From an uncultured Bacilli bacterium (GTDB lineage: Bacteria; Bacillota_I; Bacilli_A; RF39; UBA660): a stretch of DNA of 64,000 nucleotides. The notes beneath the pieces are model-generated. The model worked only from the letters and a program-made list of their open reading frames with translations, was not told the DNA's origin and did not search any database. The stretch lies in assembly GCA_934190785.1 (NCBI GenBank), contig CAKPTA010000002.1:146269-210268 (forward strand), written 5' to 3'. The translations under genes were made by a program, and so were the position numbers. Shown piece after piece: positions 8,574 through 64,000 of the stretch (positions within the stretch are counted from its first letter, which is position 1; every line of letters starts with the position of its first letter).

Positions 8574-8590
8574 TAAAAACTATTTCTTTT
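8563..8590. terminator. bidirectional rho-independent terminator shared by mfd (+) and the convergent pyrophosphatase gene (-)
   Basis: Stem GAAATAG / CTATTTC with loop TAAAAA. Flanked by an A-run upstream and a T-run downstream, so it works on both strands. Confidence 0.55.
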
Positions 8591-10238
8591 CTAATATATT
8601 CATAATTTTTGGAATAATTTGTTTTTTCCTAGATACACATCCATCAAGATAATATCCTTCGTAAAGATCTTTTATTTCAAAACAATTGTCTAAGATGTCC
8701 TTTGCTGATTCATTATATAGCATATATGAACCATTTTTAATAATATCTGTTGCAAAAAGAGCAACAATTGCGTAATCATTATTTGCAGCAATATCATTAA
8801 TTAGTTTAACATATTCGTCTTTGTCATTTAATATTTCATCAATGTTAAATGTTGTAATTTGTCCAACACCGACTTTTTTATCATCAATTGTGAAATTCTT
8901 AAAGTCTGTATATAAAATTTCTTCTTTTGTTTTACCTTTAAGTGAAGATCCTGCTTTTAGCATTTCCATTCCATAACTTTCAATATCAACTTCTGCAATA
9001 GTAGCTAAAGATTTAGCTATATCGATATCAATTTGTGTTGTAGTTGGAGATTTAAACAAAAGTGTGTCTGATATTATTCCAGATAACATTAAACCAGCAA
9101 TATTTTTAGGAATTTCAATTCCATTTTCCTTATATAACATATAAATAATTGTATTAGAACTTCCAATTGGCATATTACGGAATGAAATTGGCATGCTTGT
9201 TCCTATTGTTCCTATTTTATGGTGATCAATGATTTCTATAATTTCTGCTTCTTCTAGGCCGTCAGCACTTTGAACAGCTTCATTGTGATCAACAAGAATA
9301 ACTTTTCTTTTTTTTATGTCCGTTACATCTGATAAACGAATCAATCCAACGTATTCATTGTCGTCATTAATAACAGGATAATTACTATATTTATATTTTT
9401 TAGAAATATCAATGAAATCATTTATATCATCTTTCATGTTAATAGTTATAATTTCTTGTTTTGTCATAACACTACTTACATAATTTGCCATTCCAATTTT
9501 TCTAGAAGTTTTGAAAGTATCATCATTTGCATAAATAATATTTACTTTATTTTGTTTAGCAGCTTCTAAAAGTTCATTTGCTAATTCATTCTTACCTGTT
9601 AAAATTATCATTTTAACTTTTTTTTGTATAGCATGTTCAATTATGCTATATCTATCACCAACTATTAAAATAGATGAAGAATCTAAATCAACAGTTTCAA
9701 TGAACGTAGCACTTTTATAAGAAGCAATGAAAATATTTCCTATTATTTCGTCATCAAATTTTAATATTTCCTTAGCATTTAATGCTTTTACAATGTTTGT
9801 GTATGATGTACATAAATTTGATATATCACCACTTACAAGTCCTTTAGCAATGTCTTTTAAAGAAACGAGTCCAACTAATTTATTTTCTTTATTTACTATT
9901 GGTATGGCACCTATTTCTTCATTAGTCATTTTTATAAAACCATCATATATTGAATCTTTTTCACTAGCTGTATAATTTTTTAAAAAATCAATATCTTTAA
10001 TTTTGGTTTTAATGTCATTTAAATATCTTGGTGTGTCAACATTAAAATAGTCAAGTGCAAATTTTGTTTCATTGTTTGGATTACCAAGAACTCTTGCTTC
10101 TGCATTAATACCTAGTTTATTTTTTAGATATGCAACTGCAATTGATCCTGCAATACTATCTGTATCTGGTTTTTTATGTCCAAATACAAGAACTTTTTCT
10201 GAATTATTCATAAAACATCTCCTTTGATATAAACGCAT
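8580..10238 (-). CDS. ppaC: CBS-domain-containing family II (DHH/DHHA2) manganese-dependent inorganic pyrophosphatase
   Basis: 552 aa. N-terminal VLVFGHKKPDTDSIAGSIA is the DHH motif. Tandem CBS insert in the middle; C-terminal DHHA2 (GMEMLKAGSS...). Typical CBS-PPase architecture. Confidence 0.75.
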   Translation of the reverse strand: MRLYQRRCFMNNSEKVLVFGHKKPDTDSIAGSIAVAYLKNKLGINAEARVLGNPNNETKFALDYFNVDTPRYLNDIKTKIKDIDFLKNYTASEKDSIYDGFIKMTNEEIGAIPIVNKENKLVGLVSLKDIAKGLVSGDISNLCTSYTNIVKALNAKEILKFDDEIIGNIFIASYKSATFIETVDLDSSSILIVGDRYSIIEHAIQKKVKMIILTGKNELANELLEAAKQNKVNIIYANDDTFKTSRKIGMANYVSSVMTKQEIITINMKDDINDFIDISKKYKYSNYPVINDDNEYVGLIRLSDVTDIKKRKVILVDHNEAVQSADGLEEAEIIEIIDHHKIGTIGTSMPISFRNMPIGSSNTIIYMLYKENGIEIPKNIAGLMLSGIISDTLLFKSPTTTQIDIDIAKSLATIAEVDIESYGMEMLKAGSSLKGKTKEEILYTDFKNFTIDDKKVGVGQITTFNIDEILNDKDEYVKLINDIAANNDYAIVALFATDIIKNGSYMLYNESAKDILDNCFEIKDLYEGYYLDGCVSRKKQIIPKIMNILEKK

Positions 10239-10329
10239 TTATTATATCATAAATAAATTCAAAATTTAAAGGTAAATAAGTATATTTCATATAAAAATAA
10301 CCAAATTATTGATAGGAAGAGAGGTATAT

Positions 10330-10863
10330 ATGAAGGCAACTGGTGTTGTAAGAAGAATTGATGAACTAGGAAGAATTGTAATTCCAAAGGAAATAAGAAA
10401 AACCATGCGAATAAGAGAGGGTGAAAACATTGAAATATATACAGATACAAATGATGAAATTGTTTTAAGGAAATATTCAATCATGAAAAAATTAGGAGAT
10501 TTTGCCCAAGTTTATGCTGATTCTATCAATAATTTTTTGAAAAAAAACGTTATAATCACTGATAGTGATAATATAATAGCAGCGAGTGGTGAATTAAAGA
10601 GAAATTTAATGAATAAGGAATTAAGTGATGAATTAATAAATTCAATTAAACGACGTGAAAGCATTTTAGAAAAGCATATTAAAACTTTAAAATTAACAGA
10701 AGAATTATCATTAGATTGCACTTATGTGATAGATTCAATTATTTGTAATGGTGATTCTGTTGGATTGGTTTTGATTTTTTCTAAAATAGATAAAATATCG
10801 GAAATAGATGAAAAAATAGCGCAAATAGCTGCAGAATTTTTATCTAAATATCTTGAAGCGTAA
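10330..10863 (+). CDS. spoVT: stage V sporulation protein T (SpoVT), AbrB-type swapped-hairpin N-domain plus GAF-like C-domain
   Basis: MKATGVVRRIDELGRIVIPKEIRKTMRIREGENIEIY is nearly identical to the B. subtilis SpoVT N-terminus. Length about 178 aa. RBS GGAAGAGAGG lies before the ATG at 10330. Confidence 0.85.
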   Translation: MKATGVVRRIDELGRIVIPKEIRKTMRIREGENIEIYTDTNDEIVLRKYSIMKKLGDFAQVYADSINNFLKKNVIITDSDNIIAASGELKRNLMNKELSDELINSIKRRESILEKHIKTLKLTEELSLDCTYVIDSIICNGDSVGLVLIFSKIDKISEIDEKIAQIAAEFLSKYLEA

Positions 10864-10874
10864 AAAAGTTTATG

Positions 10875-11115
10875 TTATAATTTATCCATAAAGCTGTGAT
10901 GGAAAGAAGAATATGTATGCTTGTAGAGAGTCTATGGAAGGTGTAAATAGATAGCAGAAATATTTTAAATGGTTCTGGAGCTGTATAGATGAATAGTTAG
11001 TCTATGCCGTATTCTGCGTTAAAGATTTAAGATATAGTTTATTCTATAAGTAAGGTGGTACCGCGATTTTGTTGCCCTTATATTATAGAATTTTTTTATT
11101 TATTTTACGTTTTAT
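10875..11115 (+). promoter_or_regulatory. T-box leader (tRNA-sensing riboswitch) upstream of metS
   Basis: Conserved T-box antiterminator sequence AGTAAGGTGGTACCGCG at about 11,050-11,068. It is followed by a terminator stem and a U-tract (GCGATTTTGTTGCCC...TTTTTTT). The roughly 270-nt leader precedes an aminoacyl-tRNA synthetase gene. Confidence 0.6.
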
Positions 11116-11140
11116 GGAATGGACTAAAAGGAGGAAGAAA

Positions 11141-12676
11141 ATGAAAGAAAAATTTTATATTAGTACAGCAATTGCATATACATCTGGGAAACCTCATATT
11201 GGTAATACTTATGAAATTGTTTTAGCTGATGCGATAGCACGTTATAAACGTTTAACTGGATATGATGTTTATTTTCAAACAGGAACTGATGAACATGGAC
11301 AAAAAATAGAAGAAAAAGCTAGAGAACTTGGTGTACAACCACAGGAATTTGTTGATGAAGTATCACTTGAAGTTAGAAAAATATTTGATGTTATGAATAC
11401 AAGTTATGATAAATTTATACGTACGACAAATCCACAACATGAAGAGGTAGTGCAACGTATTTTTAAAAAATTATATGATCAAGGGGATATTTATAAAGGA
11501 AAGTATGAAGGGTTATATTGTACACCTTGTGAGTCTTTCTTTACTGAAACACAACTTGTAGATGGAAAATGTCCAGATTGTGGAAGAGAAGTTGTAAAAA
11601 CAAGTGAAGAGGCATATTTTTTAAAATTAAGTAATTATAGTTCTAGGTTAGAAGAATATATTGAATCACATCCTGATTTTATACAACCAGAAAGCAGAAA
11701 AAATGAAATTATTAATAATTTTATAAAACCAGGTTTACAAGATTTATGTGTTTCACGTACATCATTTAAATGGGGAATACCTGTAACATTTGATGAAAAG
11801 CACGTTATATATGTATGGGTAGATGCTTTAACAAATTATATTACTTTTCTTGGATATGATGTTGATGGAAAAGAAAGTGAAGAGTTTAAAAAATATTGGC
11901 CTGCTGATTTACATCTAATAGGTAAGGATATTTTACGTTTTCATACAATTTATTGGCCTATTATTTTAATGGCATTAGATTTACCACTTCCTAAAAAAAT
12001 ATTTGGCCATCCATGGGTTTTATTTGGAAATGATAAAATGAGTAAAAGTAAGGGAAATATTGTATATGCAGATGATTTAGTTAATGAATATGGTGTTGAT
12101 GCTGTTAGATATTATTTACTTCATGAAATTCCATTTGCAAGTGATGGAACTTTTACTAAAGAATTATTAATTGAAAGAATAAATTCTGATTTGGCAAATA
12201 TACTAGGTAATTTAGTAAATCGTACAATTTCTATGGCACATAAATATTTAAATGGTGAAGTAATGGCACCTAGTGTTTATGAAGATATTGATAAAGAATT
12301 AATAGATTGTGTATTATCAACAAAAAGTAAAGTTGATAAAGATATGGATGATTTAAGAATAGCAAATGCCTTAGATGATATTTTTGATATTTTTAGAAGA
12401 AGTAATAAGTATATTGATGAAACAATGCCATGGGTTTTAGCACGCGATGAATCTAAAAAGGAGCGTTTACAAACTGTTTTGTATAATTTACTTGAAGCAA
12501 TTAGAAGTGGTGCAGTATTATTACAGGCTTTTTTACCAGATACGGCAGACAAAATATTTAAACAATTAAATACAGAAAATAGATTTATTGATAGTTTAGA
12601 TTTTACTGGACTTGATATAGGTATTATTTTAAATAAACCAGAACCTCTATTTTTAAGAATTGATAAAGAAAAATAA
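11141..12676 (+). CDS. metS: methionine--tRNA ligase (short form, no C-terminal EMAPII domain)
   Basis: HIGN (HIGH-type motif), KMSKS, zinc knuckle CTPCESFF...CPDCG. RBS AGGAGG lies before the ATG at 11141. Confidence 0.9.
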   Translation: MKEKFYISTAIAYTSGKPHIGNTYEIVLADAIARYKRLTGYDVYFQTGTDEHGQKIEEKARELGVQPQEFVDEVSLEVRKIFDVMNTSYDKFIRTTNPQHEEVVQRIFKKLYDQGDIYKGKYEGLYCTPCESFFTETQLVDGKCPDCGREVVKTSEEAYFLKLSNYSSRLEEYIESHPDFIQPESRKNEIINNFIKPGLQDLCVSRTSFKWGIPVTFDEKHVIYVWVDALTNYITFLGYDVDGKESEEFKKYWPADLHLIGKDILRFHTIYWPIILMALDLPLPKKIFGHPWVLFGNDKMSKSKGNIVYADDLVNEYGVDAVRYYLLHEIPFASDGTFTKELLIERINSDLANILGNLVNRTISMAHKYLNGEVMAPSVYEDIDKELIDCVLSTKSKVDKDMDDLRIANALDDIFDIFRRSNKYIDETMPWVLARDESKKERLQTVLYNLLEAIRSGAVLLQAFLPDTADKIFKQLNTENRFIDSLDFTGLDIGIILNKPEPLFLRIDKEK

Positions 12677-12796
12677 TAAAAATGTAAAATGTTGTAAATT
12701 GTCGGGCACTTTTCCTCGATTTTATTTGCTATATGACTATTTGTTTGATATATTAGTTATGTTGTTTCAAAAATTTAGATATAAAAAGGAGATAAT

Positions 12797-12982
12797 ATGT
12801 CAAACGATGATGTTAAAGAATCGAGGGCTGTTAGATTTGTGTGTATAATAGGTGCTTTACTTTTTTTAGGAAGCATCTTATCTGATTTAGATTTTTTAGG
12901 AGCATTTTATTTATTCTCTGTTTCAGTATTTGTTATTAGATATTTTATTGCAAAGAGAAAAATAAAAATGAGTAGTAAGTAG
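12797..12982 (+). CDS. small hypothetical membrane protein
   Basis: 61 aa with two predicted TM helices. RBS AAAGGAG. A perfect hairpin terminator (AAATTATATCA/TGATATAATTT plus T-run, 12985-13017) follows. Confidence 0.3.
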   Translation: MSNDDVKESRAVRFVCIIGALLFLGSILSDLDFLGAFYLFSVSVFVIRYFIAKRKIKMSSK

Positions 12983-13025
12983 AAAATTATATCAAAAAAT
13001 GATATAATTTTTTTGGTGAAGAAAT

Positions 13026-48948: not shown

Positions 48949-49881
48949 ATGGGTAAAAAAATATTTAAAACTTTAGATGAACAAATAGAAATATTACAAA
49001 ATAAAGGTTTAATTATTAATGATATAGATAATGCTAAACAAATATTATTTCGTGAAAACTATTTCTTTGTTAGTGGTTATAGACATTTATTTATGCGCTC
49101 TTCTAAAGAAAATATTTTTATTAAAGGAACTACATTTGATGAGTTGTATGCAACATTTGTTTTTGATAGAAGAATTCGTAATATCATGTTTAAGTATATT
49201 TTAATAATTGAAAATAATATGAAATCAATCATTAGTTATCAATTATCAAAAAAATATGGTATTAAAGAAAGAGATTACTTAAATCCTAAAAATTTTATAC
49301 AAGATGGAATAAAATCAAGACAAGTAAATGATGTAATAGCAAAAATGAAAAGACAAATTCGTGTTAACGGAAAGCAACATACAGCAACACTACATTATTT
49401 AAGTAATTATGGTTATATTCCTATGTGGATTTTAGTAAAAGTTTTATCTTTTGGTATTATTTCTGAATTATATAATATTCTAAAAGCAGAAGATGCATAT
49501 AGTATTGCAGAATATTATAATTTACAGCCTGATTCTCTTTCTATTTATTTAGCAATTTTATCTAATTATAGAAATGTATGTGCCCATGAAGATATTTTAT
49601 ATGACCATAGGATACAAAGGTCTATACCTGATACTAAATATCACTATTTACTTGATATTGAAGCGACAGATGAGGAATATAATTATGGTAAAAATGATTT
49701 GTTTGCCGTAATTATTATTATGAAATTTATGTTACAACCAACTGAGTTTCATGACCTTATCTATGAAATTGGGTATGAAATTGATATATTAGATGGAAAA
49801 GTTGATACAGTACCATTGAATTTAATTTTGAATAAAATTGGTTTTCCTAATAATTGGCGTGATATAGACGATTTAGATTAG
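48949..49881 (+). CDS. Abi_2 family (AbiD/AbiF/AbiR-like) abortive infection protein, HEPN-type
   Basis: 310 aa. The N-terminus LDEQIEILQNKGLIINDIDNAKQILFRENYFFVSGY is characteristic of Abi_2. HEPN motif RNVCAHEDIL (Rx4H). Extended -10 promoter TGATATAAT at 48921-29. Confidence 0.75.
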   Translation: MGKKIFKTLDEQIEILQNKGLIINDIDNAKQILFRENYFFVSGYRHLFMRSSKENIFIKGTTFDELYATFVFDRRIRNIMFKYILIIENNMKSIISYQLSKKYGIKERDYLNPKNFIQDGIKSRQVNDVIAKMKRQIRVNGKQHTATLHYLSNYGYIPMWILVKVLSFGIISELYNILKAEDAYSIAEYYNLQPDSLSIYLAILSNYRNVCAHEDILYDHRIQRSIPDTKYHYLLDIEATDEEYNYGKNDLFAVIIIMKFMLQPTEFHDLIYEIGYEIDILDGKVDTVPLNLILNKIGFPNNWRDIDDLD

Positions 49882-52919: not shown

Positions 52920-53192
52920 ATGAATAACTATAAAATTGTTATTGATGCTGGTCATGGTGGAAGTGATCCAGGAGCCAGTGGAAATGGAATAATAGAAAAA
53001 GATTTAACTTTAAAAATATCACAATATATGTATGATAGATTTAGAGAATTAGGAATTCCTGTTACAATGACAAGAACAACAGATGAAACTGTTGAGCCAA
53101 CAGAAAGAGTCAACCGTATTTTAAATGCTTATGGTAATAGTAGTGATGTAATTGTCATTAGTAATCACATAAATGCAGGAGGAGAGACTTAG
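52920..53192 (+). pseudogene. truncated N-acetylmuramoyl-L-alanine amidase (Amidase_3) N-terminal fragment
   Basis: MNNYKIVIDAGHGGSDPGASGNG...ISNHINAGGET then stop at 90 aa. Amidase_3 catalytic domains run about 170-180 aa. No continuation appears in any downstream frame. The AT-rich island begins immediately after. Confidence 0.6.
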
Positions 53193-53472
53193 CTCTTACA
53201 TGGATTAAATTTATAAGGGTATTAAGATGGCTGTATTTAAATGATTGAGTTAGATAGTATAAATTATCTAGAACGATATTAAATGATGTTAAAATAGTGT
53301 TTATTTGAGAGATAAATGCTATTTTTTGCTTTTTAATTAAAAAACATTAAATTGTCCTGAAAATACTGAAAAAAATGTCAAAATATGATAATATATACTT
53401 GTGAGGATAAGCAGTATTTAATCTTTTTAAGATGGATACTGCTTATTTTTTGAAATAAAGGAAGTGCCAGTA

Positions 53473-56400
53473 ATGAATTATAAAGAAAGAGGATATCTAT
53501 TTCAAGATATATTTTCAACATATATAATTATTAAATATGTTAAACAAATATTATGTGGACAAAAGGTACAGGCAGAAGTGGTTTTAGATAAAAAGAATAG
53601 TAAAGATGATAAATTTGATGACTTAAAGATAATTAATAATGATGATATATTAGAAGTTCAATTAAAATATAAAGAAATAAAAGAAGAATTAGAATTATCC
53701 GATTTTTCAAATTATAGTGGTGACTTCAATCTCTATCAGTTTATTCGAAGTTATAAAAATGGAAAAAATAAACAGGTTTGTTTACTAATAAGCTTAAATA
53801 AAATTAAATTGTCGAACGAACTAATTAAAGTATTAATTTTAGAAGATGATAATAAATTTTTTTCAAATTCACACAGATATAAATTTAAAAAAACAAAACA
53901 GTTAATAAACCTTCTTTATAAAAAAAGATTATCTGCTAAAGAAAAGCCTAAAATAGATTATTCAGATTTGACAAAAAATGATATTGAAATTTTTTTGGAT
54001 AATTTTGTAATAGAAATTACTAATAAGTCTATTGTTAATAATAGTATAAAAGTAGAGGTATTAGACGAGATTAGTGATGACATTGAAAAAATATCAAAAA
54101 TACCCAAGCAAGTTCTATATAATGATATGATTGAGACTATAAGAGAATATAGAGCAGAAGATGAATATAGAAAAATTAGTATATCTGAAATAACTAAAAA
54201 ATGGATTGAAAGAATAAAATTGATGAATTATACAATTCCAGTTAATAATGAATTAAATGTTGATTATGATTGCTTTATATCTAGAAGAAATGATGTAAAA
54301 GCTATTTTAGAAAAATTTAATAATACAAATCTAATCCATGTTATTGGGCAACCAGGAGTAGGAAAAAGTTGGTTTTCTAAAGAATTAACAGATGAGTTAT
54401 GTAAGAAGAATATAAAAAATAGTACATATTACTTTTATTTTAATTATGAAGATGTTGATAAGGAAAAGAGATTAAATGAGTATAATTTTATTACTACTTT
54501 TAATTATAATTTACAAAAATTTCATGGTTATAATATAAATATTTTTAATATGAATTTTGAAAAATTAGTACTTGGCGATGATGGTGAAGAGCATTACATT
54601 ATTTTTGATGGTCTTGACCATATTATTAGAGAAAAAAATTCAAATAGTATTAATATAGGTAATTTGATTGAAAAAATTGTAGAATTTTCAAAGAACAATA
54701 AAAATGTAAAAGTTCTAATTTTATCACAGCCATTAGAAGGAATTAAAATTGAAAATATATATGAATTAAAAAATTTAAATGAGTATCAATCAAATAAACT
54801 AATAGAGTTATATTCTAGAACATTAGATTTTCCTTTGGAAAAATTAATTGATAAAAGATTTTATTACAATAGTTGTGGGAATCCATTATTATTAAAATAT
54901 ATGGTAACAGACTATATTTTAAACGGCAATTTAGTTGATTACAAAATTACCGATTTAAATGATTATTACAAAAATATTTTTGATGGCAAACAATTTGTTA
55001 TTTATATGTATTTTGCAATTTTAAGTTTTCCTATATCACCAAAAGAATTAGAAGAGATTTCTTCTATATCTTTAGAAGAAATAATAAAAGAATTGAAATG
55101 TATTAGAAATGTATTATTAATAAATGAAAAAAATGAATATACGATTTTCCATGAAAGTTTAAGAAGATACATTTTATCATTAAAACAACTAAATAAAGAT
55201 AAATTGATAATGGATATAATTAATTGGTTTAATACTAAAGATTTATATTTTGAATCTAAAAAATTTAATTATTATCCATCTTTTGTATTAGAAAATAAAA
55301 AATATGAGTTATTTGATGAGAAATTTAATTATCAAAAAATAAAAATGGCAATTATTCAAAATGCATATTCAAATAAAGAAGTCCATCTTTTTATTAGAAA
55401 TTTATATATTATAAGTCAACATAAGTCAGATTTTAAAATGCTGTATTACTTAGAATATTTTTATGATGCTTATTATACTTTTTCATATGACTTTGATGTA
55501 AATATATTTGAGAACTACATTTATATGCTCTATTACTCTGGTGAATTTGATTTAATTAGAAAATTGGTTTATACAAAGAATATATCAGAATTTTCTAATG
55601 TTAATCAGCAGTGGGAATATATGAGAAAAATACTTGTTTTTCTATTAAAAAATAAATTTGAATTAAATTATAAAGAAATAATTAATAAATATTTTAATCA
55701 TGATAAAAGCAATAAAGTAATAAGGATAAATGACTTATTAATATCTGATGATTATGATAATATTAGATTAATATATGAATACTTAAAATATAATAAAATA
55801 TCTGATTTAAAGTTGACAGAAAATAATTTAGATATTAGTTCAGATTTATATGTATTATTGAATGCATTATTAAAAAATGAGAAAAGTCTTTTTATAGAAA
55901 CTTTTTATAAAAAGGATATTTTTCTATTAAAAAATAAAAATAAAGATTTATCAAATTTATTATTAAAATTATGTGAAAAGAAGTATATTTCTTCTTTAAA
56001 TAATTTATTTTTGCTAATTAATTATATATTTAATAACAATGAAAAAAAAATAAACAAATTGTTTTCTAATTGGGATCAAACATTTGAAAATGTTCCTTGT
56101 GTTTATAAATTTATTTGTATTTTTATAAAGTTGCTCTTGAATGATAATACTACAGAAACAGAAATTGCTGATTTTTTTAATCAATATAATTTTGAAACAC
56201 TAAACTTTGAAGGATATTTAAGCAATTATAATAATAATGATATAAATTTTATTGGTAAACTTGTTGTACTAAGCAGTAAGAAGAATTTTGTTATTCAATG
56301 CTTTATGAAATTTAAAGAAAGGATTTCAAAAGAAGCTGCAAAGCATTATCATGACGGAATTATATCCCTGTTAGCATCTATATATAGTCAAATTATAGAG

Positions 56401-58335
56401 AATGTCAAATATAATAATATTATATTAAATAAAGATACTTTAAATGAAATATTGATTAGGAATAATTATCAACAAAGTAATATAACAGAATTTGAAAATA
56501 ATATCATTAATTATACTTTATCAATAATTTCCGGAGAATTTAATGATATATATTATAATAATATAATTAAATATATGTTTAGTTACGGAAGCTATAGAGA
56601 TATACAAATATGGGAATTAGAAGATATACTTTCAAGATTAATTGGTTCAAGTAAAATTGATTTAAACAAATTTATACAATTAGTAACAATTGCCTATAAT
56701 GCAATAGACAGAATGGATAGAGCAAAGGATGTTTGGCATGTACCTAATGAACTAATAAAAATGTATTCTGACAAAATATCTCCTATAGAGGCAATAAATG
56801 TTTTCTTTAGTTTTTTAGAAACCTTTGACTATGATATAAGAGATAAAGATGATTTATTTTCACATTTATATGAAAATCTAAGCAATAATGAAAAGAATAA
56901 TAAGATAAATTTTATATATAATTATTGGCGATTCATGAATAAAAATATTACTTATCAATTTGATTCTAATAATACCGAACTAAAACAATGCATTAAAAAT
57001 TCTACTAAAGCACAGTTTAATTTTCTAAAATACAATATTTTGGAGTCATTAAAATTGAATGATATAGAATTGAATTATAATATACTAAAAGAAAAGTTTA
57101 ACAAGAAAAAATTGATATTAAATTATACATATCATCCACTTAAAAATTATTTGAAAAATGATAATCCCTATACTAATTCTATTAAATTTAATTCTTTTGC
57201 GGAATTCATTGAAAAAACAAATAATAGTTATTTTGATTGTAGAACTATTAATTTTGATAGTTTTATAAAAAATATTAAAGAATTAAATGATTCACAAGAT
57301 GTATTTAATTTATTTATAAATACAAAAAATTCTTCATACTTAAATTATATTTATGAAATATTTGAAAAAAACAATCTTGATTACAATACAATAAACGAAG
57401 ATATAATAGTAGAAATTTTAGTTGGAATTTACTATAGAAGCAATGGATATGTTTCTAACATGTCATATGATGAAATATTTGAAAAAGCCTTGCAAATTTC
57501 TCCAACAAAAGCAAAAGAGTCACTTAAAAGATATGTAATAAATGATAATAATATCGATTTAGGTAGAAAATCAGGAAAAATATTTAAATACCTGCTTAAT
57601 GATAATGACATTGATGAAATCTATAATTATGTTATTGAAATATATTTTTCACGATTACCAAATTATATAGAAATTACTAGGTATTGGAATTTAAATAAAT
57701 TTGATAATAATGATATTCTTTTAAATTATTTTTTAATAAAAATAATGAATTCAGGATTAAAACATAACCTATCTACAACTGAAGAAATGATTTTTTTAAA
57801 ACTGTTTGAGGTAAAAAAATTTTCAAATAATAAGATAGTTTATATGAAAAACATGGAAGGAGACTCATTATTTTATATTATTAATTTTTTGAAAATGTAC
57901 AGTAGGGTATTACGAATTAACTATGACTCTTTTTTGAATTATAAAAATATTAATAAATTTAATTATATTAAATTTCAAATAAATAATTCTAAAACAGAGA
58001 TTGTTGAATCAGAACGAAGTTTAGTAAATGATGAGTTAGATACAAAATTAGTAAGAAATTATAGAGGGTTAATAGCTATAGAATCTGACTTGGTATATTG
58101 GTATGAAGCAAATATGTATCAAGATTTTGGTGACGATTTGTTAGATAGAAATATAAATTATAAAATATTTCATATGCATAAAGTAAATGTTTTAAAATAT
58201 TTAAAAAACAGATTTTTATGTAATTTAAAATTAAAGATTTATTGGAGGAAGATTAATAAAATTATTAGAAAATCTTATTATGTTTTCCCTTCTTCATCTG
58301 TCATTTATATATATAATGAAAGAGACAATATATGA
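53473..58335 (+). CDS. very large (about 1,620 aa) STAND/NACHT-like P-loop NTPase; candidate antiviral STAND (Avs-like) sensor-effector protein
   Basis: RBS AAAGGAAG and ATG at 53473; the track's GTG at 53464 is less likely. Walker A VIGQPGVGKSW at about aa 292. Walker B HYIIFDGLDH is the STAND-type hhhhDGLD. Downstream TIFHESLRRYI resembles the NACHT FxHxSxQEYL motif. The N-terminal roughly 250 aa contain a D...ExQxK-like pattern (FDDLKIINNDDILEVQLKYK), a possible PD-(D/E)xK-like nuclease. The C-terminal roughly 1,000 aa are N/K/Y/I-rich, helical and repeat-like. No signal peptide. Very low GC. Confidence 0.7.
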   Translation: MNYKERGYLFQDIFSTYIIIKYVKQILCGQKVQAEVVLDKKNSKDDKFDDLKIINNDDILEVQLKYKEIKEELELSDFSNYSGDFNLYQFIRSYKNGKNKQVCLLISLNKIKLSNELIKVLILEDDNKFFSNSHRYKFKKTKQLINLLYKKRLSAKEKPKIDYSDLTKNDIEIFLDNFVIEITNKSIVNNSIKVEVLDEISDDIEKISKIPKQVLYNDMIETIREYRAEDEYRKISISEITKKWIERIKLMNYTIPVNNELNVDYDCFISRRNDVKAILEKFNNTNLIHVIGQPGVGKSWFSKELTDELCKKNIKNSTYYFYFNYEDVDKEKRLNEYNFITTFNYNLQKFHGYNINIFNMNFEKLVLGDDGEEHYIIFDGLDHIIREKNSNSINIGNLIEKIVEFSKNNKNVKVLILSQPLEGIKIENIYELKNLNEYQSNKLIELYSRTLDFPLEKLIDKRFYYNSCGNPLLLKYMVTDYILNGNLVDYKITDLNDYYKNIFDGKQFVIYMYFAILSFPISPKELEEISSISLEEIIKELKCIRNVLLINEKNEYTIFHESLRRYILSLKQLNKDKLIMDIINWFNTKDLYFESKKFNYYPSFVLENKKYELFDEKFNYQKIKMAIIQNAYSNKEVHLFIRNLYIISQHKSDFKMLYYLEYFYDAYYTFSYDFDVNIFENYIYMLYYSGEFDLIRKLVYTKNISEFSNVNQQWEYMRKILVFLLKNKFELNYKEIINKYFNHDKSNKVIRINDLLISDDYDNIRLIYEYLKYNKISDLKLTENNLDISSDLYVLLNALLKNEKSLFIETFYKKDIFLLKNKNKDLSNLLLKLCEKKYISSLNNLFLLINYIFNNNEKKINKLFSNWDQTFENVPCVYKFICIFIKLLLNDNTTETEIADFFNQYNFETLNFEGYLSNYNNNDINFIGKLVVLSSKKNFVIQCFMKFKERISKEAAKHYHDGIISLLASIYSQIIENVKYNNIILNKDTLNEILIRNNYQQSNITEFENNIINYTLSIISGEFNDIYYNNIIKYMFSYGSYRDIQIWELEDILSRLIGSSKIDLNKFIQLVTIAYNAIDRMDRAKDVWHVPNELIKMYSDKISPIEAINVFFSFLETFDYDIRDKDDLFSHLYENLSNNEKNNKINFIYNYWRFMNKNITYQFDSNNTELKQCIKNSTKAQFNFLKYNILESLKLNDIELNYNILKEKFNKKKLILNYTYHPLKNYLKNDNPYTNSIKFNSFAEFIEKTNNSYFDCRTINFDSFIKNIKELNDSQDVFNLFINTKNSSYLNYIYEIFEKNNLDYNTINEDIIVEILVGIYYRSNGYVSNMSYDEIFEKALQISPTKAKESLKRYVINDNNIDLGRKSGKIFKYLLNDNDIDEIYNYVIEIYFSRLPNYIEITRYWNLNKFDNNDILLNYFLIKIMNSGLKHNLSTTEEMIFLKLFEVKKFSNNKIVYMKNMEGDSLFYIINFLKMYSRVLRINYDSFLNYKNINKFNYIKFQINNSKTEIVESERSLVNDELDTKLVRNYRGLIAIESDLVYWYEANMYQDFGDDLLDRNINYKIFHMHKVNVLKYLKNRFLCNLKLKIYWRKINKIIRKSYYVFPSSSVIYIYNERDNI

Positions 58336-58366: not shown

Positions 58367-59197
58367 ATGACTGAAAAAGAATTAGATTCAAGTGTTAACG
58401 AATATGAAGAAAAATATAAATCTAATAATTATGTAAAACAATTGAAGTGGGATATGGCTATTGGACTTCAAGAAGTAGATAATTTAAAGCCTTCTAAATA
58501 TTTAGAAAAATTATTAAAGGAAGAAGTAGAAGGTAATTTAACAATAGAAGAAGTAGAAAAAGAATTAAGAGAATATTATATTGAAAAAGAAAGTAAAAAT
58601 GAAGTAAATCATAATGAATTAGAATGTGATTTTGTATCTACTAGAATAGTTGAATTATTAAATAAAGATAATTTCGATTTATCAGTTAATTATTTAAAAT
58701 ACGTTCATAAATTTTTATTTCAAGATGTTTATGAATTTGTTGGTGAATTTAGAAAAATAGATTTTTCTAAACAGGAAAAGATACTTAACAATGATTCAGT
58801 AGTATATGGAGATTGTACTACTTTAAATCAATCACTAGAATACGATATATCGAAAGAATTAGAAAAAAACTATAAAGAAATGAATATAGTTGAAGTTATT
58901 AATAACATAACTAAATTTTCTTCTAGTATATGGCAAGTGCATCCTTTTAGAGAAGGAAATACTAGAACTACAGCCTTATTTATTGAAAAGTATTTAATTA
59001 GTTTAGGTTATAACTTAGATAATAGTTTATTTAAAGATAAATCGGTTTATTTTAGAAATGCTTTAGTAAGAAGTAATTATTTTAATAATTATTTGAATAT
59101 AAAAGAAGATAGTAGTTATTTATTTAAATTTTATGAAAATTTATTATTAGGTAAGAACAATAACCTACATTCAAAGGATTTAATTGTTCAAGAATAA
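58367..59197 (+). CDS. Fic/Doc (Fido) family protein with non-canonical active-site motif
   Basis: 276 aa. HPFREGNTRTTALFIEKYL matches HPFx(D/E)GNGRxxR except the second Gly is Thr and the final Arg is Ala. Starts 32 nt after the NTPase stop, with RBS AGGAGG, so likely co-transcribed. Terminator at 59209-59236. Confidence 0.7.
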   Translation: MTEKELDSSVNEYEEKYKSNNYVKQLKWDMAIGLQEVDNLKPSKYLEKLLKEEVEGNLTIEEVEKELREYYIEKESKNEVNHNELECDFVSTRIVELLNKDNFDLSVNYLKYVHKFLFQDVYEFVGEFRKIDFSKQEKILNNDSVVYGDCTTLNQSLEYDISKELEKNYKEMNIVEVINNITKFSSSIWQVHPFREGNTRTTALFIEKYLISLGYNLDNSLFKDKSVYFRNALVRSNYFNNYLNIKEDSSYLFKFYENLLLGKNNNLHSKDLIVQE

Positions 59198-59463: not shown

Positions 59464-60963
59464 ATGGAAGAAAAAGATTTAAAAAAATTAGAAGATAAAT
59501 TATGGGCAGCTGCCGACAAAATGAGAGGTGCTGTTTCTGTATCAGATTATAAATTTATAGTACTAGGGTTAATATTCTTAAAATATATTTCTGATTCTTT
59601 TGAAGAAAAATATAATGAACTTGTAGATGAAGGTGCTGGATTAGAAGAAGAAAGAGATTGTTATACAGCAGAAAATATATTCTATGTTCCAAAAAATGCT
59701 AGATGGGAATATTTAGTAGAACATTCAAAGGATTCTAATATTGGTGAAATTATAGATGATGCTTTAACATTAATAGAAAAAGAAAATACATCATTGAAGA
59801 ATGTTTTACCAAAAGATTACAACTCTCCAACAATGAGAAATGTCAATTTAGGTGAACTACTAGATTTATTTACCAATATTAAAGTTGGAACTAAAGAAGC
59901 AATTCAAAAAGATATTTTAGGAAGAATATATGAATATTTTTTAGGTCAATTTGCCAAAAATGAATTACAAAAAGGTGGAGAATTTTATACACCAGCTTGC
60001 TTAGTTAGAACTATGGTTGAATGTATTGAACCATTTAAAGGTAAAGTATATGATCCAGCTTGTGGTTCTGGTGGAATGTTTATTCAATCAATGAAGTTTG
60101 TAGAAGAAAATCAAGGTAATATATATAATATTGGAATTTATGGACAAGAGAAAAATCCTACCACATGGCGACTTGCAAAAATGAACTTAGCTATAAGGTC
60201 TATGTATGGTGATTTAGGAAAATATGCGGCTGATACTTTTACTGAAGATTTACATAAAGATTTAAAAGCTGATTTTATACTTGCCAATCCACCATTTAAT
60301 CTTGAGTGGGATAGAGATAAAGTCGAAAATGATCCAAGATGGAGATATGGTTTAGCACCTAAAAACAATGCCAATTTTGCTTGGTTACAACACATGATAT
60401 CTAAGTTATCACAGAATGGTAAAATGGCTTGTATTTTAGCAAATGGTTCATTATCAGCAGGTGGTCAAGAGGGCGAAATAAGAAAAAAACTAATTGAAAA
60501 TGATTTAGTAGATTGTATCTTATCAATGCCTACTAACTTATTCTATACAGTTACCGTTCCATGTTCTATATGGATAATTAATAGAAATAAGAAACAAAAA
60601 GGTAAAACATTATTTATTAATGCAAATAATTTGGGTTCAATGGTAACTAGAAGATTAAGAGAGTTATCAGAAACAGATATTAAAAAAATTGCAGATACAT
60701 ATCATAGATATCAAAATGATGATAATTATGAAAATGTTAAAGGATTTTGTTATTCAGCAACTACAGAAGAAATAAGTGCCAATGATAATGTATTGACACC
60801 TGGTAGATATGTTGGAGTTGAAGAAAATCAATGTGATGATGTTCCGTTTGAAGAGAAAATGAAGAATATTACTTCAGAATTATCAAAGCAATTTGAAGAA
60901 TCACATAGATTAGAGGAAGAAATTAGAAAAAATATGAAAGCCATTGGTTTTGAGTTAGAATAA
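59464..60963 (+). CDS. hsdM: type I restriction-modification system DNA methyltransferase subunit HsdM (N6-adenine)
   Basis: 499 aa. N-terminal HsdM_N (LWAAADKMRG). SAM motif DPACGSGGMF. Catalytic NPPF (ILANPPFNLEW). An extended -10 TGATATAAT lies at 59406-14. Confidence 0.9.
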   Translation: MEEKDLKKLEDKLWAAADKMRGAVSVSDYKFIVLGLIFLKYISDSFEEKYNELVDEGAGLEEERDCYTAENIFYVPKNARWEYLVEHSKDSNIGEIIDDALTLIEKENTSLKNVLPKDYNSPTMRNVNLGELLDLFTNIKVGTKEAIQKDILGRIYEYFLGQFAKNELQKGGEFYTPACLVRTMVECIEPFKGKVYDPACGSGGMFIQSMKFVEENQGNIYNIGIYGQEKNPTTWRLAKMNLAIRSMYGDLGKYAADTFTEDLHKDLKADFILANPPFNLEWDRDKVENDPRWRYGLAPKNNANFAWLQHMISKLSQNGKMACILANGSLSAGGQEGEIRKKLIENDLVDCILSMPTNLFYTVTVPCSIWIINRNKKQKGKTLFINANNLGSMVTRRLRELSETDIKKIADTYHRYQNDDNYENVKGFCYSATTEEISANDNVLTPGRYVGVEENQCDDVPFEEKMKNITSELSKQFEESHRLEEEIRKNMKAIGFELE

Positions 60964-61007
60964 TCGTTTGTAGTATAATAATTACCGTCTTAAAGGGGGA
61001 AATTATT

Positions 61008-62006
61008 ATGAAAACGGAAGTAATATCTAATATTACAAAAGACATGGAAGATAGTCTTACTGATTATCAACTAAATAAGCTTAAAGAGAGCTTAATAATA
61101 AACTTCGAAGGAGTAGAGTTTATTATAAAAACTGATGAAGTAAAACATCAGGAAGAATTAGATGAAAATAAGAATATGATTGATTCATTTATTTCATCTA
61201 AACAAGTTGAAGGTTGTTCAGAACGAACAATTAAATACTATAAAGAAATTATTGAAAAATTTGTTAATAGTTTTGATAAAAGTATTAAACAAATATCAAC
61301 AAATGAAATAAGAAATTATTTATCTAATTATAAAGATAATAGTTCTTGTGGATCTACAACTATAGATAATATAAGAAGGGTATTATCATCATTCTTCTCT
61401 TGGTTAGAAGATGAGGATTATATTATAAAGAGTCCAGTTAGACGAATACATAAAATAAAAACAGCAGTGGTTGTTAAAGATGTTTTAACTGATGAAAATT
61501 TAGAAAGGTTAAGAGATGAATGTGAAAACGTAAGAGATTTATCACTAATAGAATTATTAATTTCAACAGGAATGAGAGTTGGAGAACTTGTTAATTTAAA
61601 TATTAATAGTCTTAATTTTGAAGATCGTTCTTGTATTGTATTAGGTAAAGGTAATAAAGAAAGAGAAGTATATTTTGATGCAAAAACAAAATTGCATTTA
61701 AAAAAATATATTTCAAAAAGAAATGATTCAAACGATGCCTTATTTGTATCAATGAGAGAACCACATCAGAAATTATCTATTTCTGGTATTGAATTAATAA
61801 TTAGAACATTAGGAATAAATTCAAATATAAATAAAGTTCATCCACACAAATTTAGAAGAACATTAGCAACAATGGCAATAGATAAAGGTATGCCAGTTGA
61901 ACAAGTTCAAAAGTTGCTAGGTCATGTAAAAATAGAAACTACAATGAACTATGCTTTAGTTAATCAAAGTAATGTTAAAATATCACATAGAAGATATATA
62001 GCATAG
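61008..62006 (+). CDS. tyrosine site-specific recombinase (phage integrase / XerC-XerD family)
   Basis: 332 aa. N-terminal SAM-like core-binding domain. C-terminal catalytic region with R (GMRVGEL), HPHKFRRT and LGHVKIETTMNYA (H-x-x-R...Y). Confidence 0.8.
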   Translation: MKTEVISNITKDMEDSLTDYQLNKLKESLIINFEGVEFIIKTDEVKHQEELDENKNMIDSFISSKQVEGCSERTIKYYKEIIEKFVNSFDKSIKQISTNEIRNYLSNYKDNSSCGSTTIDNIRRVLSSFFSWLEDEDYIIKSPVRRIHKIKTAVVVKDVLTDENLERLRDECENVRDLSLIELLISTGMRVGELVNLNINSLNFEDRSCIVLGKGNKEREVYFDAKTKLHLKKYISKRNDSNDALFVSMREPHQKLSISGIELIIRTLGINSNINKVHPHKFRRTLATMAIDKGMPVEQVQKLLGHVKIETTMNYALVNQSNVKISHRRYIA

Positions 62007-62033
62007 AATTATTATTTGTAAAAGGAGAGAAAT

Positions 62034-63176
62034 ATGGAGTTAAAAGAATTATGCAAAATTAAGCATGGTTTTGCTTTTAAAGGAAAGGATATAATAAAAA
62101 ATTATTCTACTAAATATGTTTTAGTTACTCCTGGTAATTTTAATATAGGTGGTGGTTTTAAGAAAGATAAATGTAAATATTTTTCTAAAAATGGTAACAT
62201 TCCAAAGGATTATATTTTAAGAGAAAATGATTTGATAGTTACCATGACCGATTTGAGTGTAAAGTCTGACACATTAGGCTACTCTGCACTTATACCAAAA
62301 GATAATAATATATATCTTCATAATCAACGAATTGGATTAGTTCATGATATAGATGAATCTAAAGTATTAAAAGATTATTTATACTGGTTTATGAGAACTA
62401 AAAAATATCAACAAGAGGTTGTAGCTTCTCAATCAGGTACTGCAATTCATCATACATCTCCAGATCGAATATTAAATATAGAAATCGATTTGCCATCAAT
62501 AGATAATCAGAGAAAAATAGTTAAAATATTGTCTGATGTAGAACATAAAATTAAAAATAATAATGATACAAATAATAATTTGTACGAGGTATCAAAACAA
62601 TTGTTATTAAAATATTTAGATGAAAATAAGAGTTTTGATGAAATTAATATAAGTAAATTTCTAAATATATTTACTGGAAAGAAGAATGCTAACGAAACAT
62701 CTCCAACTGGTAAATATAAATTCTTCTCTTGTGCACCAGAAAGTTTATTATCTGATACATATTTATGTGATAGTGCTGCAATAATAGTTGCTGGTAATGG
62801 TGCATATACAGGAAGAACAAGATTTTATGATGGTAAGTTTGAACTTTATCAAAGAACTTATGGATTAACATTGAAAGATGGCTTTGAAAAGAATAATATA
62901 TATGGTTTATATGTATTTATGAAAACTATTTTTGAACCAGATAAGATGGGTGGAACTCATGGATCAGCTATACCATATATTGTGTTATCAGATTTGACAG
63001 ATTATAAATTAAAATATAACAAAGTTGAATTTGATAGATTTTCAAATTTAGTAAGTGGTAATATAAAAATGATTCAAGAAAATGAAAAATCTAATGAAAA
63101 ATTATCAGAACTAAGAGATACATTATTACCAAAATTAATGAATGGTGAAATAGATTTAGATAATATAGAGATTTAA
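62034..63176 (+). CDS. hsdS: type I restriction-modification specificity subunit HsdS (two target-recognition domains)
   Basis: 380 aa. Central conserved spacer (LPSIDNQRKIVKILSDVEHKI) and C-terminal conserved helix (LRDTLLPKLMNGEIDL) flank two variable TRDs. Confidence 0.85.
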   Translation: MELKELCKIKHGFAFKGKDIIKNYSTKYVLVTPGNFNIGGGFKKDKCKYFSKNGNIPKDYILRENDLIVTMTDLSVKSDTLGYSALIPKDNNIYLHNQRIGLVHDIDESKVLKDYLYWFMRTKKYQQEVVASQSGTAIHHTSPDRILNIEIDLPSIDNQRKIVKILSDVEHKIKNNNDTNNNLYEVSKQLLLKYLDENKSFDEINISKFLNIFTGKKNANETSPTGKYKFFSCAPESLLSDTYLCDSAAIIVAGNGAYTGRTRFYDGKFELYQRTYGLTLKDGFEKNNIYGLYVFMKTIFEPDKMGGTHGSAIPYIVLSDLTDYKLKYNKVEFDRFSNLVSGNIKMIQENEKSNEKLSELRDTLLPKLMNGEIDLDNIEI

Positions 63177-63211
63177 TCATACAAATTGTGATTTGTATAA
63201 TGGAGGAATAC

Positions 63212-63973
63212 ATGAAAAAGGATTTATTTGATTATATAATAGAACCAACGGATAAAGAGTATAGAAAAGAAAATATAATAGACGATATATCTTTTATCCC
63301 AAAACTTATCATCCCTAAAAATGCTTATTTTATGAATCATCATGATTACTTAATAAATGATGCAATTGTAAATTATAATAATGAAACAGTAGTTGCAAAA
63401 ATGTTTTATGCAAACATGATAAAATATGAGAAATATTATGAAAAAACTAAAGATGAAAACTACGATTTTTGGGCAAGAAAGAATGGAGAACAGTTAATTA
63501 AGGAATTATATTCTATTTATGATAAGTCGGTTCATATTGTTAATTATTTGTTTGATTTGAAAGTACTTCCTGATTTAGGATTTAAAAAAAATATTAGAGA
63601 ACAATTAAAATCTAAAGATAAAGATTTCTATAAAGTGTTTAACAAAATATTTAGTAAACTTTATGGGGAATCAAACAATGTCGTTCGTGATGATATAACT
63701 CACAATTTTAGTAATTTATTTTTTAGATATGTTCCTAAGTACGATGATAGTAAGGAAACTGGTTGGTATACTGAAGAGTCTTTATCCTTTAAAGAATACA
63801 AAAATATAATTGATGAAATCTGTTCGTTATTGGTAGAAAATAAAAATATTATTATAAATAAAATTGCTAGTATTTATCCTAAAAAGGGAACAGAAGAATA
63901 CGAAGAACAATGTAAGAAGAATATTGATAGGGCAAAAGAAATGTATGATAAATTAAAAGCTGGAAATCATTAA
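63212..63973 (+). CDS. hypothetical protein with HEPN-like Rx4HN motif (candidate Abi/RNase partner of the RM locus)
   Basis: 254 aa. RBS GGAGGA lies before the ATG at 63212. The C-terminal half contains VVRDDITHNFSN (R-x4-H-N). No other recognisable motif. Confidence 0.4.
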   Translation: MKKDLFDYIIEPTDKEYRKENIIDDISFIPKLIIPKNAYFMNHHDYLINDAIVNYNNETVVAKMFYANMIKYEKYYEKTKDENYDFWARKNGEQLIKELYSIYDKSVHIVNYLFDLKVLPDLGFKKNIREQLKSKDKDFYKVFNKIFSKLYGESNNVVRDDITHNFSNLFFRYVPKYDDSKETGWYTEESLSFKEYKNIIDEICSLLVENKNIIINKIASIYPKKGTEEYEEQCKKNIDRAKEMYDKLKAGNH

Positions 63974-64000
63974 AAGATATTTAATGAGTAACATCAAAAA

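Follow-up and report, generated by a model that had tools for sequence, protein, structure and literature searches.

The gene at 53473–58335 on the forward strand of the 64,000-nucleotide stretch analysed here (the window) encodes a STAND protein of 1620 residues, which is probably a single-gene antiviral system of the Avs/bNACHT type with a Cap4/LmuA/HamA-type PD-(D/E)xK DNase as its N-terminal head. The protein contains three parts, a nuclease module, a NACHT-like NTPase and a long C-terminal region, all of whose features described below lie on the same (+) strand. Specifically, the putative Cap4/LmuA/HamA-like nuclease module covers residues 1–235 (53473–54177) and is defined by an AF2 model, Foldseek, HMM matches of relatives and a profile of distant relatives. 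The nucleotide-binding domain of the STAND NTPase, which is NPHP3_N/NACHT-like according to Pfam and its Walker motifs, lies at 54286–54726, and the C-terminal ~1000 residues (55330–58332) are presumed to be the sensor. The nuclease–STAND architecture is already known from anti-phage sensors. The protein is a divergent addition to it rather than a system of a new kind; in concept, it is one further example of the established nuclease–STAND pattern-recognition receptors and opens no new question.

The ORF list gives this reading frame with starts at 53464 (GTG) and 53473 (ATG) and an end at 58335, the ATG yielding 1620 codons plus stop. On sequence evidence, the ATG at 53473 is the real start of the gene, as had been proposed in the preliminary description, because a Shine-Dalgarno-like AAAGGAAG (53457–53464, found by inspection) is located 8 nt upstream and because the relatives all start with the same methionine in MNYKERGY. 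The gene is thus complete. The GC content over the gene is 19–20%, compared with 24–33% across most of the window. Promoter and terminator scans returned 77 sites against 75 expected in AT-rich DNA and were uninformative.

The structure of the N-terminal domain was predicted by AF2 from a 27-sequence alignment, with pLDDT of 91.2 and pTM of 0.88. An earlier model from a 4-sequence alignment had pLDDT of 43 and was unusable. Residues 3–108 are predicted to fold into an alpha-beta-beta-beta-alpha-beta restriction-endonuclease core (H3–27/E34–38/E51–55/E58–67/H87–97/E101–108), while residues 110–230 are predicted to form a second alpha/beta plus helical subdomain. In a Foldseek search against the PDB, the top matches of the model are HamA (8zue_A, E 7.8e-6), LmuA (9ux7_C, 9.4e-6) and HerA-DUF4297 (9c1m_G, 3.7e-5), each with probability of 1.00. 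Cap4 follows (6wan_D, E 0.034), and the lower matches are all Hjc, RecU or restriction enzymes, MspJI and EcoT38I among them. The TM-scores are moderate, 0.51–0.55 on the query. Matches in a viral structure library are likewise restriction-enzyme, Mrr or RecU-like. The preliminary description had read a restriction-endonuclease fold into this region and had set against that reading a confident match to a non-nuclease fold. The confident model resembles nuclease folds only, and the predicted core, the Foldseek matches and the matches of relatives to Cap4_nuclease, LmuA and HamA models all support the reading.

Family membership was measured by searching 1.84 billion proteins with a profile. This retrieved 39 matches that share the N-domain, and many of these are 1400–2000 residues long. 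The family so found combines this N-domain with a NACHT-like NTPase and a long C-terminus, and its homologues span Bacilli, Cyanobacteria and Proteobacteria. Full-length orthologues have 92%, 57%, 54% and 44% identity over the nuclease module (residues 1–235), and a profile of distant relatives alone scores the query with 102 bits over residues 4–187. A word-indexed homologue search returned four close fragments and nothing more, and tblastn of the N-domain found nothing in plasmid or phage collections.

The sequence link from the query to Cap4 and LmuA is transitive, running through the relatives and complemented by the predicted structure, because the N-domain of the query is directly recognised by no Pfam, PADLOC, NCBIfam or PDB sequence model. 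Specifically, 12 of the 27 aligned relatives match Pfam Cap4_nuclease (PF14130), with a best E of 2.2e-6 and residues 7–77 aligned to profile positions 8–70, while the query itself has no match to PF14130 at E≤1. The PF14130 scores of the relatives lie close to the gathering cut-off; P0053, for one, has 25.7 bits against 26.2. This relative and P0111 carry a precomputed PF14130 annotation. PADLOC LmuA and PADLOC HamA are each matched by 10 of the 27 relatives, LmuA being their best PADLOC match (E down to 4.4e-11). The Cap4_nuclease and LmuA alignments of the relatives start at the helix motif GYxYQD. Matches of the family profile to the CBL UBA domain ("GYSYQD") among PDB sequences were rejected as spurious, and a phmmer search of the PDB with P0012, an LmuA-like relative, yielded nothing useful. 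Together, the sequence matches of relatives and the model support placement of the domain in the Cap4/LmuA/HamA branch of the PD-(D/E)xK superfamily.

Residue conservation was measured on a family alignment of about 133 homologue sequences. The hydrophobic helix and the following segment at residues ~50–70 that the preliminary description pointed out are both present, as ERGYLFQDIFSTYIIIKY (residues 5–22, 53485–53538) and KFDDLKIINNDDILEVQLKYKE (residues 47–68 in ATG numbering, 53611–53676). The former lies in helix alpha-1 (model helix 3–27) and carries the invariant G7-Y8-x-(F/Y)10-Q11-D12, in which G7, Y8, Q11 and D12 are conserved in 123–124 of 123–124 sequences (100%). D39-K40-K41 (53587–53595) lies at the end of strand beta-1 (model strand 34–38), with D39 in 130/136 sequences (Glu in three more) and K41 in 131/137. 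The acidic cluster D46-K-F-D49-D50 (53608–53622) is located at the N-terminus of strand beta-2 (model strand 51–55), where D46 and D50 are each present in 136/136 sequences and D49 in 135/136. E61-V-Q63-L-K65 (53653–53667) lies in strand beta-3 (model strand 58–67), with Q63 in 132/133 sequences and K65 in 130/132. E61 is conserved in only 99/133 and is replaced elsewhere by R, K, Y, F or G, the last in the full-length orthologue P0005, and it was rejected as a catalytic residue.

Because E61 is variable, the conserved signature reads in the alignment as D(49/50)...Q63-x-K65, a PD-QxK variant, rather than ExQxK. Accordingly, the D...E-x-Q-x-K pattern of the preliminary description stands for D49/D50, Q63 and K65, which are near-invariant, but not for its glutamate. 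The D...QxK motif is present in all orthologues and distant relatives, so the loss of the motif that had been named as counter-evidence does not occur. In the model, D49/D50 are at the start of beta-2 and QxK is within beta-3, and D49/D50 probably stand in for the "PD" aspartate. PD-QxK is a recognised active catalytic variant (PMC11037411). Since the (D/E) position is Gln, the candidates for a second metal ligand are D39, D46, D49 or D12. D39 may be an extra acidic or metal ligand, and K41 is a conserved lysine.

Assignment of the protein to the STAND class in the preliminary description holds. Pfam NPHP3_N matches the query at about residues 272–418 (E=3e-10; 41 bits against a cut-off of 24.8), and NACHT matches more weakly, below its threshold (E=5e-4; 20.4 against 26.7 bits). 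Walker A (GQPGVGKS, residues 292–299, 54346–54369) and Walker B (IIFDGLD, residues 376–382, 54598–54618) are both present in every orthologue compared. A search of the NTPase region against PDB sequences found nothing useful. In the C-terminal ~1000 residues no domain was recognised in Pfam, PADLOC or NCBIfam and no TPR was detected; this region is 30–60% conserved among orthologues and, judging from the STAND architecture, is presumably the sensor. The protein thus has the antiviral STAND layout, with an N-terminal effector, a central NTPase with Walker A/B and an extended C-terminus, and its orthologues keep it. Against PADLOC, the full protein matches no named Avs1–5 or NLR model, its sole weak result being mad8 (E 0.005), and its relatives give one weak match to Avs1b (1.9e-6, NTPase region) and one to Avs2 (0.012). 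Because the Avs/NLR models of PADLOC give weak matches at most, we file the protein as Avs-like by architecture, outside any named Avs family.

SeAvs3 and SeAvs7 were reportedly described by Gao et al. (2022) as antiviral STAND proteins with an N-terminal Cap4 nuclease. Like them, the query is predicted to start with a Cap4-type PD-(D/E)xK nuclease, which is followed by a STAND NTPase in the middle and a long putative sensor at the C-terminus, and like them it is a single-gene system in a defence island. SeAvs3/SeAvs7 form Cap4-STAND tetramers (PMC12803255), and by analogy tetramerisation of the nuclease domains would be the expected activation of the query. Unlike SeAvs3/SeAvs7, the query has no PADLOC Avs match, its NTPase is best described as NPHP3_N/NACHT-like, its C-terminus has no detectable TPR and its N-domain is too divergent for PF14130. 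bNACHT25 and bNACHT32 (clade 6) likewise have a PD-(D/E)xK DNase effector at the N-terminus, joined to an NTPase of the NACHT type. In bNACHT25, the active-site substitution D48A abolishes defence (PMC12169576), and the query has a conserved Asp near residue 48–50. This comparison was made by description; in contrast to the two bNACHT proteins, the query has a NACHT match below threshold and no NCH1 detected. The fusion of N-terminal nucleases to Avs and other STAND defence proteins, invoked in the preliminary description, has precedents in SeAvs3/SeAvs7 (PMC12803255) and bNACHT25 (PMC12169576).

The effector of Lamassu, LmuA (Cap4 nuclease plus CTD; PDB 9ux7, 9nxx), is similar to the query beyond the nuclease core, with a Foldseek match spanning about 218 columns. 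LmuA acts as a tetramer with catalytic K57/K59 (10.1101/2025.06.23.660979), at a position similar to that of query K65. However, in the query the nuclease and the STAND NTPase are parts of one polypeptide chain, and no LmuB (SMC/Rad50-like) or LmuC gene is nearby; Lamassu was rejected, as neither the window nor the orthologous loci have an SMC-like ORF beside the gene. HamA (Hachiman, DUF1837; 8zue) and HerA-DUF4297 (9c1m; PMC11291478), the other top structural matches, are served by separate partner ATPases, the HamB helicase and the HerA hexamer, which are absent here. HerA-DUF4297 has NTPase-controlled activation and a D...ExK triad, D41/E59/K61 (10.1101/2024.10.24.620088), whereas the motif of the query is D...QxK. 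CBASS Cap4 (DUF4297 nuclease plus SAVED; 6wan), after which PF14130 is named, would belong to the same nuclease family and is activated by oligomerisation, but its Foldseek match is weaker and the query has no SAVED, cyclase or cyclic-oligonucleotide signalling. Hachiman (HamAB) and CBASS were rejected, as no HamB helicase, SAVED or CD-NTase operon is found in the protein or its immediate neighbours.

From SeAvs3/SeAvs7, bNACHT25, LmuA and HerA-DUF4297 we infer how catalysis, trigger, oligomeric state and an abortive outcome might be connected in the query. Until activated, the nuclease domains would remain inactive monomers. Recognition of a phage-derived cue by the C-terminal region would cause the NTPase module to oligomerise, which would join the nuclease domains in active dimers or tetramers. 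These would degrade double-stranded DNA non-specifically, and the infection would be aborted. The protein would in this sense be a "sensor-activated DNase", by analogy with homologous systems.

The gene is surrounded by other defence genes. AbiD is located ~3.6 kb upstream, a Fic gene (PADLOC PDC-S72, 1e-77) 31 nt downstream, and a type I R-M system also downstream. L001, the locus with 92% identity, has the Fic gene as well, but none was found downstream of the orthologues at L002 or L006–L008. The neighbours at L002 are Dcm and HNH, and those at L006–L008 are Dcm together with Bsp6I restriction enzyme, GIY-YIG and a helicase. Thus, the neighbours vary between genomes and are mostly defence genes, which places the family in defence islands. 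Fic was rejected as an obligate partner, as the loci of the orthologues with 57% and 44% identity lack it.

The proximity of Fic bears on an alternative in which the PD-(D/E)xK fold is real but no longer cuts DNA: the domain would be inactive, or would have been recruited for DNA binding, sensing of DNA ends or oligomerisation, while another component, for example Fic, would deliver the toxicity. Two features of the motif also favour this alternative: Gln occupies the position that is canonically Asp/Glu in (D/E)xK, and E61 varies. It is nevertheless unlikely, because D39, D46, D49, D50, Q63 and K65 are essentially invariant across phyla, as in a maintained active-site pattern, because the PD-QxK variant is known in active enzymes, and because Fic is not constant downstream of the orthologues and matches a stand-alone candidate system. 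NTPase-fused catalytic domains of the Mrr type typically carry the same QxK (PMC11037411). Together with MspJI and EcoT38I among the lower Foldseek matches and the R-M-rich neighbourhood, this signature could indicate a sequence- or modification-dependent restriction nuclease (Mrr/type IV-like, with McrBC-like coupling), in which the NTPase drives translocation or assembly on DNA, in place of an abortive-infection sensor triggered by a phage protein. We consider this quite unlikely: the NTPase matches NPHP3_N and has DGLD in Walker B, which makes it STAND/NACHT-type rather than similar to the McrB/AAA+ GTPases; by sequence and by structure the domain comes closest to Cap4, LmuA and HamA, not to Mrr; and a C-terminal extension of ~1000 residues is a hallmark of STAND sensors.

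The motif as a bare string is within chance in such a K/D/E/N-rich protein, and its significance comes from conservation. The generic D-x8-20-[DEQ]xK pattern occurs 19 times in the protein against 20.6 in shuffles, and the specific D...ExQxK pattern appears in 7–14% of shuffles. These rates, together with the lack of direct database matches of the query and the poor first, shallow model, would suit a chance motif in a low-complexity, AT-rich-encoded protein whose N-terminal region has no nuclease fold. This explanation is highly improbable and effectively refuted by the invariance of the residues in about 133 homologues from three bacterial groups, by the high-confidence model from the deeper alignment, whose structural neighbours are all nucleases, and by the matches of relatives to three independent nuclease HMMs.

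The preferred reading, a DNase head on an antiviral STAND protein, provides a very large unannotated gene of an uncultured low-GC gut bacterium with a testable predicted function and point mutants (D50A, Q63A and K65A; K298A in Walker A). This Cap4-like branch is missed by standard domain libraries on single sequences, and a family profile would improve STAND annotation. More tentatively, the protein and its ~40–130 detectable relatives may constitute an unnamed STAND defence family, in which the 235-residue N-module is an LmuA-like unit that either came from Lamassu-type systems or was passed on to them, and in which the domain-less C-terminus of ~1000 residues senses an undescribed trigger. 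If so, a complete effector-plus-oligomerisation unit would have been exchanged as a module between SMC-based and STAND-based immunity, and there would be a new sensor to deorphanise. The protein and these relatives occur in MAGs of gut Bacilli and on cyanobacterial, Moraxella and Pseudoalteromonas plasmids.

The STAND protein is encoded by one long plus-strand ORF (53464/53473-58335). The sequence AAAGGAAG lies 8 nt before the ATG at 53473, and MNYKERGY is the N-terminus of every relative. Judged from these sequences, the functional start is the ATG at 53473, and residue numbers count from there. Pfam NPHP3_N matches at about residues 272-418 with 41 bits (cut-off 24.8), and NACHT matches more weakly at the same place. 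A motif scan finds Walker A GQPGVGKS at residues 292-299 and Walker B IIFDGLD at residues 376-382, and the STAND assignment in the preliminary description is thus correct. The helix ERGYLFQDIFSTYIIIKY (residues 5-22, nt 53485-53538, plus strand) and the motif KFDDLKIINNDDILEVQLKYKE (residues 47-68, nt 53611-53676, plus strand) that it describes are also present. GC content over the gene (54001-58000) is 0.19-0.20, compared with 0.24-0.33 in most of the window, consistent with horizontal acquisition.

As a bare string, the motif is no more than chance. N, I, K, L, E, and D are abundant in the protein; the generic pattern D-x8-20-[DEQ]xK occurs 19 times, compared with 20.6 ± 5.1 in shuffles, and the specific pattern D...ExQxK arises in 7-14% of shuffles. 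Support for a nuclease must therefore rest on homology and structure.

Searches of Pfam, PADLOC, NCBIfam, and PDB sequences with the N-domain alone gave no match. A word-indexed homologue search gave four close fragments, and the first profile, built from these fragments, was searched against 1.84 billion representative proteins. The search returned 39 matches with E down to 1e-94 and distant members at 2.6e-8 to 1e-3, many of the matched proteins being 1400-2000 residues long. A second profile search added 113 matches, of which several carry a downstream PF24883 (NPHP3_N) annotation and two carry PF14130. Full-length relatives contain the N-domain, then NPHP3_N/NACHT at about residues 275-430, then a long C-terminus. 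A profile made from 21 distant members only, with the query clade left out, recovers the query at 102 bits over residues 4-187; on this sequence evidence, its membership in the family is solid.

When 27 aligned N-domains were each scanned singly against Pfam and PADLOC, 12 matched Pfam PF14130 "Cap4, dsDNA endonuclease domain" (best E 2.2e-6), with residues 7-77 aligned to profile positions 8-70, from GYxYQD through QxK. PADLOC LmuA was matched by 10/27 (best E 4.4e-11), as was HamA/DUF1837 (best E 2.7e-6). The query itself is below detection by all three models, and the sequence link to Cap4/LmuA/HamA is therefore transitive, through relatives. In three relatives, P0012 (381 aa), P0021, and P0053, the PADLOC LmuA model aligns by its positions 11-309 of 373 to about 290-345 residues, far exceeding the ~100-residue nuclease core. 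This hints that the STAND N-module and LmuA may have more in common than the catalytic core, the long envelope being possibly in part an artefact.

Conservation, counted over about 123-137 sequences, defines the signature G-Y-x-(F/Y)-Q-D (helix) ... D39-x-K41 ... D46-x-F-D49-D50 ... Q63-x-K65-(Y/H). Specifically, G7, Y8, Q11, D12, D46, and D50 are 100% conserved, followed by D49 (135/136), Q63 (132/133), K65 (130/132), D39 (130/136, plus 3 E), and K41 (131/137). Of the proposed D...E-x-Q-x-K pattern, the Asp, Q63, and K65 are conserved, whereas E61 is variable (99/133; otherwise R, K, Y, F, or G, with G in the full-length orthologue P0005), reducing the second half to Q-x-K. PD-QxK, with Gln replacing D/E, is recognised as a variant that is catalytic (PMC11037411). 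Through its invariant helix motif GY(E/S)YQD, the family alignment gave weak PDB matches (E 0.07-0.3) to the human CBL UBA domain "QGYSYQDIQKAL"; these are spurious, a coincidence of short motifs, and homology was rejected.

AlphaFold2 modelled the N-domain with the 27-sequence alignment at pLDDT 91.2 and pTM 0.88. The predicted core is canonical alpha-beta-beta-beta-alpha-beta (H3-27, E34-38, E51-55, E58-67, H87-97, and E101-108), in which D49/D50 mark the N-terminus of beta-2 and beta-3 carries Q63-x-K65; a second alpha/beta-helical subdomain follows to about residue 230. Foldseek against PDB matched the model to HamA (8zue_A, E 7.8e-6, probability 1.00), LmuA (9ux7_C, E 9.4e-6, TMq 0.55 over 218 columns; 9nxx, E 3.7e-3), HerA-DUF4297 (9c1m_G, E 3.7e-5, probability 1.00), and Cap4 (6wan_D, E 0.034). 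Lower-ranked matches were Hjc, RecU, SfsA, and restriction enzymes, and no competing non-nuclease fold was among the PDB matches. Matches in a viral structure library were weaker, yet also restriction-enzyme, Mrr, or RecU-like. Structure prediction, proposed earlier as a check, thus matches the predicted domain to nuclease folds only. Homology and predicted fold support the nuclease reading, with the motif amended to D...QxK and the subfamily to Cap4/LmuA/HamA-like.

As monomers, the Cap4-type nucleases of characterised relatives lack activity, which they gain on coming together. SeAvs3 and SeAvs7 tetramerise when they bind phage terminase or major capsid protein (PMC12803255), and LmuA assembles into an active tetramer whose catalytic residues are K57/K59 (10.1101/2025.06.23.660979). 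HerA-DUF4297 (D41/E59/K61) degrades host and phage DNA (10.1101/2024.10.24.620088; PMC11291478), and in bNACHT25 both defence and DNA degradation depend on the PD-(D/E)xK Asp, D48 (PMC12169576). By analogy, the STAND protein would sense a phage cue with its C-terminal region, its NTPase would then oligomerise, and the N-domains would assemble and cut dsDNA non-specifically, making the protein a putative abortive-infection system. Its mode of action would resemble that of Avs3, Avs7, and bNACHT25; no named Avs model in PADLOC recognises it. Lamassu, Hachiman, and CBASS membership were each rejected because the partner genes are absent. The protein is a divergent addition to an already known nuclease-STAND type.

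Loss of the motif in orthologues, which the preliminary description had held would speak against a nuclease, is absent. The motif and Walker A/B are kept in 4/4 co-linear, full-length orthologues, with nuclease-module identities of 92% (L001) and 57% (L002), both in uncultured Bacilli MAGs, 54% (P0005), and 44% (P0007). Plasmids of Pseudanabaena, Moraxella, and Pseudoalteromonas carry more distant relatives, whose sole annotation is "ATP-binding protein"; one of 2005 aa (7001-13018) adjoins MobC/relaxase genes on the mobilizable Pseudanabaena plasmid NZ_AP017561.1. These relatives indicate that the family has spread widely by horizontal transfer and that its nuclease domain is systematically under-annotated.

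An AbiD/Abi_2 abortive-infection gene (48949-49881, plus strand; Pfam 4e-40, PADLOC AbiD 2.6e-60) lies about 3.6 kb upstream of the STAND gene. Between them are HtrA-like protease, Hsp20-like, and M23 peptidase genes, so defence and housekeeping genes are interleaved. A Fic gene (58367-59197, plus strand) begins 31 nt after the STAND stop codon and very strongly matches PDC-S72, a phage-defence candidate in PADLOC (E 1.1e-77). L001 has the Fic gene too, but it is missing downstream of more distant orthologues and is therefore probably an independent defence gene. Flanking genes vary by genome and are mostly defence genes: metallophosphoesterase, Dcm, and HNH at L002, and ASCH, Dcm, Bsp6I restriction enzyme, GIY-YIG, and helicase at L006-L008. 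Thus, the STAND gene behaves as a single-gene defence module in variable islands, and Fic was rejected as its conserved partner.

Further downstream is an hsdM-integrase-hsdS type I R-M module (59464-63176, plus strand), with a tyrosine recombinase (61008-62006) between hsdM and hsdS, as is typical of phase-variable systems with shuffling specificity. Up to the end of the window at 64000, the search found no hsdR, no second inverted hsdS, and no long inverted repeats that were convincing. A 261-aa ORF without a Pfam match (63188-63973) follows hsdS.

Directly upstream of the STAND gene is a truncated N-acetylmuramoyl-L-alanine amidase ORF (52920-53192, plus strand; 90 aa, Amidase_3 profile positions 1-79 of 174). 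L002 has a truncated Amidase_3 fragment (7514-7852, 112 aa) just upstream of its orthologue, while its downstream cargo is unlike that of the window, which suggests a common integration hotspot in or beside the amidase gene. Further upstream in the window, the many small plus-strand ORFs at 28-42 kb resemble a ribosomal-protein cluster.
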